IMG/VR virus record: IMGVR_UViG_3300032117_000040
Coordinates: 1 to 51,757 of that record
From: a virus
Lineage: Duplodnaviria; Caudoviricetes
Strand: one strand, 5' to 3'
Length of the DNA stretch: 51,757 bases
The translations under genes and the position numbers were made by a program. The notes under the pieces were generated by a model. It was not told where the DNA came from and did no database searches. It saw only the letters and a program-made list of their open reading frames with translations. Below, in pieces: positions 7,029-19,713 of this stretch (its first letter is position 1; the number at the start of each line of letters is the position of its first letter).

Positions 7029-9041
7029 ATGCCCTTTGAATCGGAACAACAACGCAAAGCAATGTACGCTGCCGCCGCTGGCCACAGCAACATTGGCATT
7101 CCACAAAGCGTTGGAGAAAAATTCGTGCGTCACGGAAGTGACAGCGATATTCCTGAAGAAGCAACTGTGTTGAGTACGCCTGATGAAGACCCTTGTTGGG
7201 AAGGCTATCAACAAGTGGGCATGAAGGAAAAAGGCGGTAAAGAGGTGCCAAATTGCGTTCCTGATGCAGTTGTGCCACGCTTGGGTGAAGAGCCCCATGC
7301 AACCGTACCTGTTGACAAAGATGCAGGTGCAGCTGGCCGCGCGTCAGGCATTATGTTTTTGACCGACACAGGCGAAGCTTTAATGATCCGCCGTGGCAAC
7401 GGTGGTGACTATCCCGGCACATGGGCTGTGCCCGGTGGCCATCAAAATTCTGGCGAGACTCTTGAAGAGTGCGCGCGCCGTGAATGTTTTGAAGAGACAG
7501 GCATCAAATACGAAGGCGCGCTTGAGGTTTTGTACGATGACGGCCAGTTTTGCACGTACATTGCGCGCCATGCTGAAAAAGTGCCTGTCAAACTCAACGA
7601 TGAATCAACAGGTTACGATTGGTGTTCTATTGACACCCCTCCTCAGCCTTTGCATCCCGGTCAAGCGATCTGTATGCGCATCGCTTCAGCCAATACCGAA
7701 TATCAAGTAGCCGAGCTCATTCGAGACGGTTTGTTGCCCAGCCCACAGATGTACGCCAACGTGATGTTGTTGGCCATTCGCATTACAGGCACAGGGCTTG
7801 CATATCGTTCAAGCATTGGTGAACACGTTTGGCGCGACCCATCGTTGTATTTAAACCAAGACTTTTTGAACCGTTGCAACGGTCTAATCGTGCTGATGGA
7901 TCACCCCGACACATCGGTATTGACTTCAAAAGAATTCAACGACCGTGCCGTGGGCAGCGTGATTTTGCCTTACATCAAAGGCGACGAAGTTTGGGGTATC
8001 GCAAAGATTTACGATCAACCTTCGATTAACGAAATTTTGGAAGGGGACATTAGTACCTCTCCCGCCGTAGTGTTTGACAACACTGCGGGAAACACTACAC
8101 TTACAACTGAAAACGGCGAGCCGCTTTTAATTGAAGGTGTACCATTCCTCTTAGACCACATTGCCATCGTTACGAAGGCGCGTGGATCAAAAGGGGTTTG
8201 GGACAAGGGCGGTGAACCCGCTGGCGTTTTATTAACCAACCCTGAGGTGTCTGATATGACAGAAAAAGTGAATGAGCCGAAGGCAGATGCCCAAGGCGAC
8301 AAACTCGATGCCATTTTGAACGCTGTGGGCGCACTTGCTGCCCGCGTCGATTCGATGGAAAAAAACCTTCCGGCTCCCCCTTTAGTCACTGCGGCTGACA
8401 AAAAAGCCAAAAAAGACGAAGAAGCCAAAATGGACGACGACGATCGTATGGACGACGACGAAGCCAAAATGGATGATGACGACTCTAAAAAAGACGACGA
8501 CTCCAAAGCCAAAAAACATCGTAAAGATGCTAAAGGCTCTGACCCCAAAGAGCACGACGAAGGCGAAATCAAGCCTGACGACGATTGCAGAATGGACGAT
8601 GACGAAGAAGAAGAAATGGCCAAAAAAGCTGATGAAGAAGCTGCAAAGTACGCCGACGCGCAAGCGAAAGCCGACAGTGTTCTCGCTGGATTTGGCAAGT
8701 CTGCTTCACGCCCATTGCAAGGTGAAAGCGTGATGTCTTATCGCAAACGTCTGTTGCGCGGTATGCAAGCCTACTCTGATAGCTTCAAAGGTATTGATTT
8801 GAACAGCATCCGCGACGCCAAGTTGTTGGATTTGGCTGAGAAACAAATTTTTGCTGATGCAGCTATGGCTTCACGTCATTCAGCTGGTGTCCCCGCTGGT
8901 CAACTGGTGGAAATCCACGAACGTGACCGCGCTGGCCGCATCATCACCAAGTTCAAAGGTTCTATGTCTGCATGGCTCGACGACTTCAAGTTGCCAGCTC
9001 ATCGCGTGACTAGCTTCCACACAGCCAACAACGCACGCTAA
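7029..9041 (+). CDS. prohead protease/scaffold (DUF2213-like) with an N-terminal NUDIX domain
   Basis: Nudix box GGHQNSGETLEECARRECFEETG; DHP, STSP and DHIAIV motifs; acidic C-terminal scaffold. Confidence 0.8.
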   Translation: MPFESEQQRKAMYAAAAGHSNIGIPQSVGEKFVRHGSDSDIPEEATVLSTPDEDPCWEGYQQVGMKEKGGKEVPNCVPDAVVPRLGEEPHATVPVDKDAGAAGRASGIMFLTDTGEALMIRRGNGGDYPGTWAVPGGHQNSGETLEECARRECFEETGIKYEGALEVLYDDGQFCTYIARHAEKVPVKLNDESTGYDWCSIDTPPQPLHPGQAICMRIASANTEYQVAELIRDGLLPSPQMYANVMLLAIRITGTGLAYRSSIGEHVWRDPSLYLNQDFLNRCNGLIVLMDHPDTSVLTSKEFNDRAVGSVILPYIKGDEVWGIAKIYDQPSINEILEGDISTSPAVVFDNTAGNTTLTTENGEPLLIEGVPFLLDHIAIVTKARGSKGVWDKGGEPAGVLLTNPEVSDMTEKVNEPKADAQGDKLDAILNAVGALAARVDSMEKNLPAPPLVTAADKKAKKDEEAKMDDDDRMDDDEAKMDDDDSKKDDDSKAKKHRKDAKGSDPKEHDEGEIKPDDDCRMDDDEEEEMAKKADEEAAKYADAQAKADSVLAGFGKSASRPLQGESVMSYRKRLLRGMQAYSDSFKGIDLNSIRDAKLLDLAEKQIFADAAMASRHSAGVPAGQLVEIHERDRAGRIITKFKGSMSAWLDDFKLPAHRVTSFHTANNAR

Positions 9042-9690: not shown

Positions 9691-10716
9691 ATGTCCGGCT
9701 TTGCACCGTCATTTGTTACCGTCAATCCGCACTACATGATGCCTGAGCTCATCATGCAGTATTCTTTGGCTTCCGGCGCGTTCACCACGCTGGCCACAGA
9801 AAATCCAATGGCTCGTTTGGGCGAAGCTGACCTGTATGTCTACGCGAAGAAAATTCAGTTGACATCACAAGTTAGCGCCAATCAATCGACTGTGAACCAG
9901 TTGCCCAGCGCATCTGTGATCCCTTCGATGATCAGCACCGCTACTTACCGCCTGCAAACCCGCGCTCAGTACGACAACTTCGACGAAGCTGCTACTGGCC
10001 AATGGGGTTACGCTTTGCCCGAAGCAATGCGTCTGGCTGCTCGTCAAGGTATTGCTCAACAACTGCGTAACGCTCTGTTGTATGGTTTCAACCCATCCAA
10101 CGGCGAAGGCTTGTTGAACACCGCTGGCGCCACCACCCTGAACCTCGGTTCTGACACCAATGGCAACACTGGTTACAGCACATGGGATTCTGGTCAATTG
10201 GCTCAGTTCTTGTTGAACATGATTGGCGCTTTGAAAGTTCGCACTTTGCAAATCGGCCAACCTCTGCGTTTGGTGTTCTTGGCACCTCAGCGTTTCATCA
10301 GCCAAATCAGCTACTCTGGCGTTGTGTCTCTGACTCAATTCCAACGTATCGGTGCTGGTGTTGAAACCGCCGCAGGCTTGGTTGAAACCGTTGCTCAATG
10401 GGCGGGCGGCGACGACGTTAGCTTCGCTGCTGATGACACCTTGATCGGTCAAGGTTCTGGCGGCACCGACGCTATCCTGTTGATCGCTCCTGAGTTGAAG
10501 ATCCCTAAAGCAAATACCCGCATCAACACCAACGTGTTTGCAAGTTTGACTCCAAACCAAACTGCTACATCTTTGATGTTGACAGACGTGTCTGCTCCTA
10601 CAGAGATCCCCACTCCGATCGCTGACGGTGGTATCACCACTCTGTACACAATGCGCTCAACTTCTGGTTGGGGCTTGCGTCCTGAAGCATTGACCATTTT
10701 GTCTGCTGCTTACTAA
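9691..10716 (+). CDS. major capsid protein
   Basis: 341 aa; strong AAGGAG RBS; high-expression codon bias; LLYG..GEGLLN motif; followed by a terminator. Confidence 0.85.
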   Translation: MSGFAPSFVTVNPHYMMPELIMQYSLASGAFTTLATENPMARLGEADLYVYAKKIQLTSQVSANQSTVNQLPSASVIPSMISTATYRLQTRAQYDNFDEAATGQWGYALPEAMRLAARQGIAQQLRNALLYGFNPSNGEGLLNTAGATTLNLGSDTNGNTGYSTWDSGQLAQFLLNMIGALKVRTLQIGQPLRLVFLAPQRFISQISYSGVVSLTQFQRIGAGVETAAGLVETVAQWAGGDDVSFAADDTLIGQGSGGTDAILLIAPELKIPKANTRINTNVFASLTPNQTATSLMLTDVSAPTEIPTPIADGGITTLYTMRSTSGWGLRPEALTILSAAY

Positions 10717-10737
10717 GCACAGATTTGGTTAGCAAGG

Positions 10738-10761
10738 AACCCCACTACGGTGGGGTTTTTT
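10738..10761 (+). terminator. intrinsic terminator
   Basis: AACCCCAC-TACG-GTGGGGTT followed by a T run. Confidence 0.85.
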
Positions 10762-10775
10762 GTTATGATTGCGAT

Positions 10776-10872
10776 GAACTTGTGTGATGCCAAGTAAAAG
10801 GTTTTGGGCGGGTAGGGTTTGGTTTCTGTTGTGAGCCCTCGGAAATCTGACCGCATCATCTACCCGCCCACC
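10776..10872 (+). ncRNA. candidate pseudoknotted RNA or structured leader
   Basis: Extended -10 TGTTATGAT at 10761-10769; hairpin loop GTGATGC is complementary to bulge GCATCAT in a hairpin closed by an 11-bp perfect stem. Confidence 0.55.
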
Positions 10873-10886
10873 CCATAAAGGAAGAA

Positions 10887-11399
10887 ATGATGGAACTTTA
10901 TGTAGCTAATTGCAGCAAGCAAGATTTTGATTTCACTTACATGCTGCCTGAAAATCCCCGCCCTTTCTTGCACCGCATCCGCGCGGGTTCGCAAGTGAAG
11001 ATCCAAGGTACATCCACTGAAGTTGATCAGATTGTCAAACAACACACCGTCTACGGCATGATGAATGTCGATGAAGTGAAAAAAGGTTTTGGCAGCTTGG
11101 CTTATCGAATTGGCAAACCAATCAGCGTAGACGCGATTGAAAATGGTTTTACCCAATCCGAACAAGAAGCCATTGACCGCGCGCTGGAAGCGCGTAAGAT
11201 TCAGGCTGCGGCATCGGATCAGATCATCCAACAAAAAGCGCAAGAGATGGGTTTGCGTCAAACTGAAGGTCTGGAAATTGAAGTGATTGAAGAAAAACGC
11301 AACGCTGCGGATACTGATCCTAAATTTCAACAGACAATCGAAGTTTCACGTGAAACAGCCGCGCCCAAACGTGGTCGTGGTCGCCCATCAAAAGGCTGA
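10887..11399 (+). CDS. conserved head/neck-region hypothetical protein
   Basis: 170 aa; LYVANCSKQ N-terminus; basic KRGRGRP tail. Confidence 0.7.
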   Translation: MMELYVANCSKQDFDFTYMLPENPRPFLHRIRAGSQVKIQGTSTEVDQIVKQHTVYGMMNVDEVKKGFGSLAYRIGKPISVDAIENGFTQSEQEAIDRALEARKIQAAASDQIIQQKAQEMGLRQTEGLEIEVIEEKRNAADTDPKFQQTIEVSRETAAPKRGRGRPSKG

Positions 11400-16027: not shown

Positions 16028-16149
16028 ATTATCTTAGCGGCGCGGCTTTTGGCACACTTGTAAGAGAATTTGACGGACAATGGATCGACGCTGAACAGTA
16101 TCGTCAACGACATCTGATCAAAGCGATTGAAAGTAAGTCATTTTTTTAA
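15841..16149 (+). CDS. -1 frameshift extension of the tail assembly chaperone (gpGT-like)
   Basis: T TTT TTT at 15841-15847; the -1 frame is open from 15814 to the stop at 16149. Confidence 0.55.
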   Translation, partial: FFYCNLQGCAQGSEGFFLGDGGVVKKLGAYILGLYGIPEWFADLDQGRQYWRDNPSIIADLLDYLSGAAFGTLVREFDGQWIDAEQYRQRHLIKAIESKSFF

Positions 16150-16167
16150 TCTAACAGAGATCAGAAA

Positions 16168-18691: not shown

Positions 18692-19713
18692 TGCGGTATT
18701 ACGAGATAACGATAACTCAAAGCCAAGCCAACCTTTCGGCGGGGAATAAAGCTTTTTCGCCGATCACGTTTTCCACGCTCAACTCTAGCGGATTGAACAA
18801 TCCATCTGCGTTAAAGGTTGAGATAGATGCTTTTCAGACTTACTATCATCAGCCATCACAACACAGTTTTTTAAGGATTTCTGGCGTGTCGTATGACATA
18901 TTGAAGCAAGGCAACAACTTCAATAACGCTAATATCAGCATCAAAGTAGGCATGAGCAAAGGTTTACCTTTTGCCACCCCTTCACAGCAGGGCGAAATCA
19001 TCAACGGGTCTATTTTTCAAGCCTTTGGAAATTGGCAAGGAAATATGGTAACGCTTGATCTGGTGATTTTGTCGTTCAACACAAACATACTTACACCAAC
19101 AAACTTAAGCTTCACATGGGATAAAGGCGTAAGTTTGGAGACAGCTATACGTACAACTTTGCAAAATGGATTTGGCACTTTCGATGCGAATGGTAAAAGA
19201 AGTGCTGCAAACGTGTTTGGAAACTTAGATGCTCGATTGATATACACAGAAACTCAGCCATATACGTATAACAGTTTGCAATCTTTTTCTTACGCAATGT
19301 GGAACATAAGTAAACAGATAATACCTGACCCTACTTATGCTGGCGTGGGTATATCCGCTATTTCAAGCGGATTTTTACTCGATGATGGCACAGCGCCAAT
19401 TGCAAAAACTGTTCAACTTCAATATCAAGATTTGATTGGCAACGTCACTTGGATAAACACTGCAACGATCCAAACAAAATTGGTGATGCGCGGCGATATA
19501 ACGATCGGCGACTACATCAAATTTCCAACCTACACACCTGTTAACGAAGTGGCGGGGAATAATTCGCAAGCCAGAAACAACCCTTCTTTTAGTGGCGTGT
19601 TCAGGGTCAACAAGATTCGCCACGTAGGTAATAGCCGACAAGCCGATGCAAACAGTTGGGTAACGATACTCGATTGCACGGTACAAAACACGCCAATGGA
19701 ATGGTACGATTAA
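18691..19713 (+). CDS. baseplate hub protein
   Basis: About 340 aa, beta-rich; HVGNSR..W.T motif; precedes the spike. Confidence 0.65.
   Translation: MRYYEITITQSQANLSAGNKAFSPITFSTLNSSGLNNPSALKVEIDAFQTYYHQPSQHSFLRISGVSYDILKQGNNFNNANISIKVGMSKGLPFATPSQQGEIINGSIFQAFGNWQGNMVTLDLVILSFNTNILTPTNLSFTWDKGVSLETAIRTTLQNGFGTFDANGKRSAANVFGNLDARLIYTETQPYTYNSLQSFSYAMWNISKQIIPDPTYAGVGISAISSGFLLDDGTAPIAKTVQLQYQDLIGNVTWINTATIQTKLVMRGDITIGDYIKFPTYTPVNEVAGNNSQARNNPSFSGVFRVNKIRHVGNSRQADANSWVTILDCTVQNTPMEWYD

Follow-up and report, generated by a model that had tools for sequence, protein, structure and literature searches.

A conserved pseudoknotted mRNA leader downstream of the capsid gene in uncultured lake phages

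The complete virus record IMGVR_UViG_3300032117_000040 (Caudoviricetes), whose 51,757 bases form the window analyzed here, contains a structural block on the + strand (3095-30330) in which the genes are packed tightly, with gaps that are nearly all shorter than 15 nt. The largest gap of this block, 170 nt, lies 3' of the capsid gene and follows the only strong terminator of the block. An earlier reading of the sequence alone (hereafter, the sequence-only reading) had placed in this gap a promoter-driven RNA with two hairpins, in which the loop of the first could pair with a bulge of the second, and took it for a pseudoknotted cis-regulator or a noncoding RNA (ncRNA). Here we show that the gap encodes a folded RNA element with a conserved, covarying pseudoknot, located on the + strand and invariably linked to one family of downstream genes. 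For this element, we infer a promoter and a transcript start, an effect on translation or message stability, and a specific partner.

Fold and covariation of the element

Inspection of positions 10500-11100 recovered all the elements listed in the sequence-only reading where it had placed them. The upper stem GGT/ACC required an amendment: it is present, with 4 rather than 3 base pairs in the minimum free energy (MFE) fold, the last pair being U-G. RNAfold reproduces both hairpins at -38.9 kcal/mol and leaves the 7-nt bulge single-stranded (helix names and coordinates are given in Table 1). The 7 loop bases GTGATGC and the bulge GCATCAT can form 6 Watson-Crick pairs and 1 G-U pair. Taken alone, the window sequence is suggestive, not significant. 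In a comparison with 200 shuffled sequences (mean -31.5, standard deviation 3.2), 2 were as stable as the native one (z = -2.31), and complementarity over 7 nt, with G-U pairs allowed, between a given loop and a site in an RNA of about 100 nt is expected in roughly 1 case in 10 by chance, by a rough estimate. Because the z-score is modest and such complementarity is not rare, the single-sequence evidence is not convincing. Folding of the reverse strand is less favorable (z = -1.91). The loop heptamer GTGATGC shows no enrichment across the window (15 matches versus 9.7 +/- 3.1 expected), giving no sign of repeated target sites.

Relatives provide the evidence that carries the case. Of 145 capsid relatives detected in IMG/VR, we retrieved the 80 best (89-100% identical); their post-capsid regions display the same architecture with different stem sequences. 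In alignment A1, made with MAFFT from the sequences only and comprising 47 distinct sequences, four pairs of P1 are 100% paired, and all four have changed on both sides. The 7-bp loop-bulge helix, denoted the kissing helix below, is 100% paired as well, with two pairs double-changed and one changed from G-U to G-C. Altogether, double changes are seen in 18/27 pairs. The covariation score of A1 (0.329, against 0.163 for shuffled alignments) was reached in 0/500 shuffles and exceeds that of every slid register. From the same alignment, RNAalifold, unaided, predicts P1, the outer part of P2 and the base of P3, with double changes in 12 of the 15 predicted pairs.

Both MAFFT and the covariance model mis-register P2 stems of differing length; the covariance model alignment (A2) was not used, and P2 and P3 pairs were counted by parsing each of 58 distinct sequences outward from the junction. 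The four core pairs of P1 are 100% paired in 47/47 and 58/58 distinct sequences, with 3-4 pair types each. At positions 1-10 of P2, canonical pairs make up 97-100%; as many as five pair types occur per position, and the 58 sequences have 34 different 5' strands. For P3, the canonical fraction is 100% at positions 1-4, 95% at position 5 and 90% at position 6. Contiguous pairs of P2 and P3 number at least 13 (median 17), whereas none of 1160 shuffles had more than 10.

The kissing helix is canonical at all 7 positions in 100% of the 58 sequences. It occurs as GTGATGC/GCATCAT in 51/58 and as GTGATGC/GCATCAC in 4/58; the three remaining variants, found once each, are GTCAAGC/GCTTGAT, GTCATGC/GCATGAT and GTGAAGC/GCTTCAT, in which every change is compensated. 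Another 7 distinct full-length sequences carry the commonest pair. Conservation and covariation of the loop-bulge pairing, on which the sequence-only reading had staked its pseudoknot, were thus both found, and because the pairing is retained in 100% of the sequences, with three exactly compensated variants, the pseudoknot is real. G-U pairs are frequent, occurring in 54/58 sequences at position 1 of the kissing helix and in 31/58 at position 4 of P2; as these pairs would be mismatches on the opposite strand, the element is encoded on the + strand.

The leader is about 97 nt long in the window (10778-10874, + strand) and about 75-95 nt long in the relatives. Across the family, P1 consists of 4-7 bp with an 8-nt loop, 7 bases of which pair with the bulge. 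It is followed by the J1/2 linker (7-12 nt, U-rich, variable in sequence) and by P2, which comprises 10-12 bp and is closed by a U-A pair, explaining the conserved A in CCCACCC. P3 comprises 4-12 bp and is variable in its apical part and loop, with insertions in the window and in locus L021; the A-rich P3 loop of most relatives is not found in the window. On the 3' side, the order is the 7-nt bulge, the 3' strand of P2, a C-run, 3-8 nt, the G-run of the Shine-Dalgarno (SD) sequence, and the ATG. P2 continues into P3 on the 5' side with zero unpaired bases, so the kissing helix cannot stack between P2 and P3; on this parse, P2, P3 and the kissing helix, the latter stacked on P1, must form a closed three-helix junction. 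P1 and the kissing helix together (11-14 bp) have roughly the length of P2, and the linker can bridge their ends; given the linker and the matched helix lengths, the pairing appears feasible within one molecule.

Several other features were considered and dropped. An ATG immediately 5' of P2, a potential start of a leader peptide, is absent in 8/47 sequences, and its U forms the closing pair of P2 with an A. That the U-rich J1/2 might pair with an A-rich P3 loop was discarded because several sequences have no U-run in J1/2, and because the window, L021 and L136 lack an A-rich P3 loop; docking of the A-rich P3 loop as a core feature was rejected for the latter reason. The bulge could also pair with the ATGATG start region of the window, but in most relatives there is just one ATG.

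Table 1. Features of the capsid gene, the leader and the downstream gene (positions in the window)
Feature	Position	Strand	Description
Major capsid protein gene	9691..10716	+	341 aa; phrog_6671, 8.7e-139; phrog_264 'major head protein', 3e-08; weak PF09950
Intrinsic terminator	10738..10761	+	stem CCCCAC/GTGGGG, 10740-10745 with 10750-10755; loop TACG; six T, 10756-10761
Extended -10 promoter-like element	10761..10769	+	TGTTATGAT; consensus TGnTAnnnT
P1 hairpin	10778..10795	+	ACTTG (10778-10782), 8-nt loop TGTGATGC (10783-10790), CAAGT (10791-10795)
Pseudoknot, 5' half	10784..10790	+	P1 loop bases GTGATGC; pairs with 10853-10859
J1/2 linker	10796..10804	+	from structural parse
P2, 5' strand	10805..10815	+	TGGGCGGGTAG; perfect 11 bp with 10860-10870
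P3	10816..10852	+	base 10816-10819 with 10849-10852; extension 10821-10828 with 10840-10847, specific to the window
Pseudoknot, 3' half	10853..10859	+	bulge GCATCAT between P3 and P2; unpaired in MFE fold
P2, 3' strand	10860..10870	+	CTACCCGCCCA; pairs with 10805-10815
C-run	10871..10874	+	directly 3' of P2; P4 partner of the SD G-run in most relatives
SD sequence	10880..10884	+	GGAAG; from sequence
Downstream gene, phrog_6737 family	10890..11399	+	169 aa from ATG 10890; function unknown; phrog_6737, 1.4e-33

Distribution of the leader and its association with the phrog_6737 gene

A covariance model (R1), built from 47 distinct copies with the pseudoknot left out, found its target once in the window (74.2 bits, E = 1.4e-20; next candidate, 9.4 bits) and once in each of 80 of the 81 sources, the exception (L018) being a contig that ends too early. 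The model also matched 2/2 contigs from metagenome-assembled genomes (MAGs), 21/21 metagenome loci, 36/48 additional loci and 47/80 loci from a pattern scan, the remaining 33 of which are chance pattern matches. Many of the sources are the same contigs fetched twice; distinct full-length sequences total 65. Each phage carries one copy of the element. A pattern search independent of the kissing helix yielded 4 new distinct full-length sequences and two truncated copies, with no new kissing-helix variant among the 4.

Every examined copy directly precedes a homolog of the phrog_6737 gene, an open reading frame (ORF) starting with M-E/K-L-Y/F-I-A-N-C. The capsid gene is the upstream neighbor and lies outside the RNA element. 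In about 12 loci, an extra ORF intervenes between the capsid gene and the element, which is still found directly before the phrog_6737 homolog (these loci include L017, L019-L021, L023, L024, L035, L062, L069, L101, L135, L146 and L148). Because the element stays with the phrog_6737 gene despite this insertion, it belongs to that gene rather than to the capsid gene.

The extra ORF is located after the capsid terminator and encodes a protein with a tail rich in Pro, Ala and Thr; the annotated decoration (Dec) protein of Pantoea phage PdC23 occupies the same position. In L017, L019, L020 and L024, the stop codon of the extra ORF lies about 9 nt before P1, so that terminating ribosomes could unfold P1.

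Beyond the closest relatives, a search of viral and metagenome contigs with the L083 protein returned the same clade again and did not widen the family. With tblastn, distant homologs of the downstream protein (33-38% identity) were detected in 12 cultured-phage records. R1, run with filters off on four of these phages, Pantoea PdC23, Escherichia Rac-SA53, Klebsiella Chronis and Yersinia vB_YenM_29.18, found nothing (best E = 0.77). In PdC23, the decoration-protein gene is inserted between the capsid gene and the homolog; in the other three, the annotated gap before the homolog spans 29-107 nt. The element was found only in this uncultured clade of lake phages.

In a collection of 185,579 species genomes, only two hits were obtained, L082 and L083; the MAGs that contain them carry the labels Mucilaginibacter (Bacteroidota) and Oxalobacteraceae (Betaproteobacteria). 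The Oxalobacteraceae MAG is the sole match among 151 genomes of its family; the 150 others contain none. The host hints given by the two MAGs conflict, and at least one of these contigs is probably a binned phage fragment. L083 is the most reduced copy of the element, with a P2 of 7 bp, a P3 of 4 bp and no hairpin between the C-run and the SD sequence.

The sequence-only reading had the structure end just before the ribosome-binding site of a gene starting at 10887. The adjacency holds; the start is most likely the second of two in-frame ATGs (10887 and 10890). The GGAAG motif lies 5 nt before 10890 and 2 nt before 10887, the relatives begin with M-E/K-L-Y, and the sequence in the protein atlas begins at residue 2; this spacing, the N-termini of the relatives and the atlas record all point to 10890. 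Across the family, 15-23 nt separate the end of P2 from the ATG. In 56/61 distinct sequences, the C-run and the G-run of the SD sequence can form a hairpin of at least 3 bp that starts within 2 nt of P2, with TCC/GGA and CCT/AGG among the variant pairs seen. In partition-function folds, the mean unpaired probability of the SD sequence is 0.36 in the family. By these models, SD pairing is common, weak and not universal.

The downstream protein belongs to no Pfam family and has no sequence relative in the PDB. Its AlphaFold2 model (mean predicted local distance difference test score, 78) gave no Foldseek match at E <= 0.001, and the best VIA-align match (Z = 4.8) covers a long helix only. In the protein atlas, it falls only in 'hypothetical protein' clusters. 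The C-terminus (encoded at 11370-11399) is disordered and basic, with a motif of the R-G-R-P type (…KRGRGRPSKG; family consensus RGRPRK in the homologs from L001-L080). The cultured homologs, which have no leader, end in short Lys-rich tails that do not contain an RGRP-type motif. This contrast between basic tails and leaders follows phylogeny and, judged from the sequences, is only a lead to a protein partner.

Transcription, possible role and alternative explanations

The capsid terminator consists of a 6-bp stem with 5 G-C pairs, a 4-nt loop and 6 T, as in intrinsic terminators. It was the only strong site in our own scan for hairpins followed by T-runs over positions 3000-31000 of the + strand, and was not listed by the built-in promoter and terminator scan. 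A T-run of at least 5 is present upstream of the element in 52/65 distinct contexts, and the terminator stems vary among the relatives yet remain paired. Further downstream on the + strand (10900-31000), a single weak terminator-like site was detected (19355-19376). The TGnTAnnnT motif that follows the terminator in the window ends 12-14 nt before the loop heptamer in 40/65 distinct contexts and is a plausible promoter by sequence. If the extended -10 element is indeed a promoter, the predicted transcript would start at about 10776-10777, 1-2 nt before P1 (0-2 nt in the family).

With regard to function, we consider it moderately probable that this sequence is a structured leader that controls, in cis, translation initiation on the mRNA of the post-capsid gene, the stability of its 5' end, or both. 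Acting on the mRNA of the phrog_6737 gene, the leader would set the rate at which ribosomes initiate on the post-capsid (neck and tail) genes and the lifetime of the 5' end of the message. In most relatives, the C-run abutting the last P2 pair may hold the G-run of the SD sequence in a short hairpin stacked on P2. The kissing helix is likely to be the surface read by a trans-acting partner, because it is near-invariant while P1, P2 and P3 drift freely; we favor a phage protein engaged in a feedback loop. The cis-regulator of the sequence-only reading fits this context, in which the element always stands directly 5' of the SD sequence of one gene family, on one strand; the free ncRNA that it also allowed does not.

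Known phage and bacterial leaders offer functional parallels. The pseudoknot in the leader of phage T4 gene 32 is a translational operator (PMC3014915, PMC535899). That operator is likewise a pseudoknot near the 5' end of a phage mRNA leader, upstream of the ribosome site of the controlled gene, and it shows that a protein can exert feedback by way of such a leader. The element described here is, in the same manner, a structured leader adjoining the ribosome site of the downstream gene. It differs from the T4 leader in that there is no similarity by sequence or model, the loop-bulge pairing closes a three-helix junction, the SD sequence follows directly, and the gene in question belongs to the virion module instead of encoding a DNA-binding protein; protein feedback is only proposed here. 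In the rpsO/S15 operator and in the activator pseudoknot of ColIb-P9 repZ, a hairpin loop pairs with a distant segment near the SD sequence and sets initiation. Those pseudoknots include or touch the SD sequence or the AUG, whereas the pseudoknot of the element is one helix (P2) away from the SD sequence. The element functionally resembles phage and bacterial leader pseudoknots and is a member of none of those families.

Several observations weigh against control of translation or stability in cis. The extended -10 element is missing in 25/65 contexts, 14 of which have TAnnnT alone and 11 nothing. The four examined cultured relatives carry the homologous gene without the leader, so the gene does not need it; in Chronis and vB_YenM_29.18, the gap sequences hold just a terminator hairpin and an SD sequence. 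The hairpin between the C-run and the SD sequence is generally just 3 bp long, and in 5/61 sequences, including the window and L083, pairing is reduced to 2 bp. In the window, the mean unpaired probability of the SD sequence is 0.79. With this hairpin weak or absent, occlusion of the SD sequence cannot be the whole mechanism. Furthermore, the downstream protein has no recognized fold or family.

Among the alternatives, it is unlikely that the fold is a protective or processing element only, which shields the message from 5'-end-dependent decay, or offers a double-strand-specific RNase a site at which the mRNA is split into capsid and neck-tail parts, without control of initiation. Such a role would suit the predicted transcript start 1-2 nt before P1, the near-continuous helix of 14-20 bp with a 3' bulge formed by P2 and P3, and the location right after a terminator, where a very highly expressed gene gives way to lower-copy ones. 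A simple hairpin would suffice for it, however, so that the strictly conserved kissing helix is left unexplained, as is the fixed spacing to the SD sequence with its paired C-run, and in the 25/65 contexts without a promoter-like element, the fold would be internal to a longer RNA. It appears quite improbable that the three-helix junction is the aptamer of a small-molecule riboswitch, whose ligand alters access to the ribosome site. The compact pseudoknotted fold does stand directly before an SD sequence that can pair with the adjacent C-run, the kissing helix is unusually invariant, with one loop/bulge pair common to 57/65 distinct full-length sequences, and near-invariant helices occur where ligands bind the grooves of pseudoknots. 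Against a ligand, the near-invariant bases reside in helices (the kissing helix and the junction G-C pairs) and in the C-run, whereas J1/2, the first loop base and the P3 loop vary in sequence and length. Ligands can also bind helix grooves, so a pocket may exist despite the variable single strands. In addition, the element precedes one family of virion-module genes only, never genes for metabolism or transport, no known riboswitch model matches it, and no conserved alternative (switch) pairing was seen. A related proposal, which we rate as likewise quite improbable, is that the leader is a sensor of a new aptamer class, in which the invariant kissing helix and the junction bind a signal, be it free head protein or, from the infected cell, a nucleotide messenger or small molecule. 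Were this the case, translation of the whole neck and tail block would be gated, providing an RNA checkpoint of morphogenesis. A self-cleaving fold of a new kind, or swapping of loop and bulge between molecules, are bolder options that may be entertained.

Two further explanations would move the site of action away from the ribosome. In phage HK022, putL is an RNA of about 70 nt with two stem-loops, located just downstream of PL, that requires no protein factor (PMC9378689). The element shares with put RNA the proposed action in cis, the two stem-loops and, if the candidate promoter is used, synthesis just after a promoter; being at the head of a long operon, it might attach to RNA polymerase during transcription and render the enzyme insensitive to pause and termination sites over the structural operon of about 20 kb. 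This we hold to be very unlikely: the single weak terminator-like site downstream (19355-19376) leaves little to read through, an RNA that binds RNA polymerase does not need fixed spacing to the SD sequence, and put RNA acts on the polymerase with no ribosome-site coupling, no sequence similarity to the element and no loop-bulge pseudoknot, a word that does not occur in PMC9378689. The other explanation, raised by the sequence-only reading itself, is a free ncRNA, in which loop and bulge pair between molecules to form oligomers, as in the pRNA of phage phi29. In phi29 pRNA, a separate transcript of small phi29-like phages, the contact between loop and bulge loop is intermolecular and spans 4 nt. 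A hairpin loop and a bulge loop are complementary here as well, over 7 nt, and could in principle be swapped between molecules. The element is, however, part of an mRNA leader. It abuts the ribosome-binding site, with no 3' end signal (a hairpin with a T-run) between it and the ORF and with the SD sequence within about 10 nt; the linker of 7-12 nt and the helix lengths would allow intramolecular pairing; no Rfam family or model matches; and the genome, at 51.8 kb, with genes for a tail sheath and a portal and with a terminase-like match that is weak and falls below the Pfam cut-off, is not phi29-like. Pairing in trans may be physically possible, and nothing points to it; oligomers of this kind have, in our assessment, next to no probability.

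A search of the whole window against Rfam 15 at gathering thresholds gave 0 matches. When positions 10700-10920 were searched with E up to 10, 13 weak matches were obtained, all far below gathering; several of these (terminator-type) lie on 10700-10771, and three overlap the element (E = 1.5-7.8). The Infernal comparison with Rfam proposed in the sequence-only reading therefore assigns the element to no family. A literature search retrieved no description of it. The intergenic set DNAVirus_N, derived from IMG/VR, comprises 8495 candidate structured RNAs, 879 of them within 25 bp upstream of genes (PMC10690425). The set shares with our element the source and the type of object, a covarying intergenic RNA of uncultured phages. 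The main-text passages on the set do not describe the element; it may be one of the 8495, in which case it would be an unnamed entry without a described pseudoknot or mechanism.

The element would constitute a well-supported new family of phage RNAs with an uncommon topology, in which a loop kisses the bulge of the neighboring hairpin and closes a three-helix junction. It is located where the phage must drop from capsid-level to neck- and tail-level expression. If control of translation is its function, the leader would be an RNA-level device for virion stoichiometry in abundant uncultured lake phages. The invariance of the kissing helix, against the drift of the other helices, points to a specific partner, and the naturally compensated variants are ready-made designs for testing the leader.

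Genes of the structural block

Early in the structural block are a terminase-like gene (weak Pfam match, below the cut-off), a portal gene and a weak match to a Mu F-like protein. Next come a 670-aa NUDIX/DUF2213 protein and the capsid gene, after which five genes of unknown function precede that of the tail sheath. No tRNA or tmRNA gene was found in the window.

The 670-aa protein (7029-9041, + strand) belongs to the head module. It contains a NUDIX hydrolase domain at residues 104-212 (PF00293, 8.6e-17), joined to a DUF2213/phrog_6216 region that weakly resembles a head maturation protease. The fusion of a NUDIX domain to a head-assembly protein is unusual.

The second-largest gap of the block (140 nt, 16028-16167) separates a 194-aa ORF from a 547-aa protein with a tail-lysozyme domain. 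A position like this one usually encodes the frameshifted extension of the tail chaperone.

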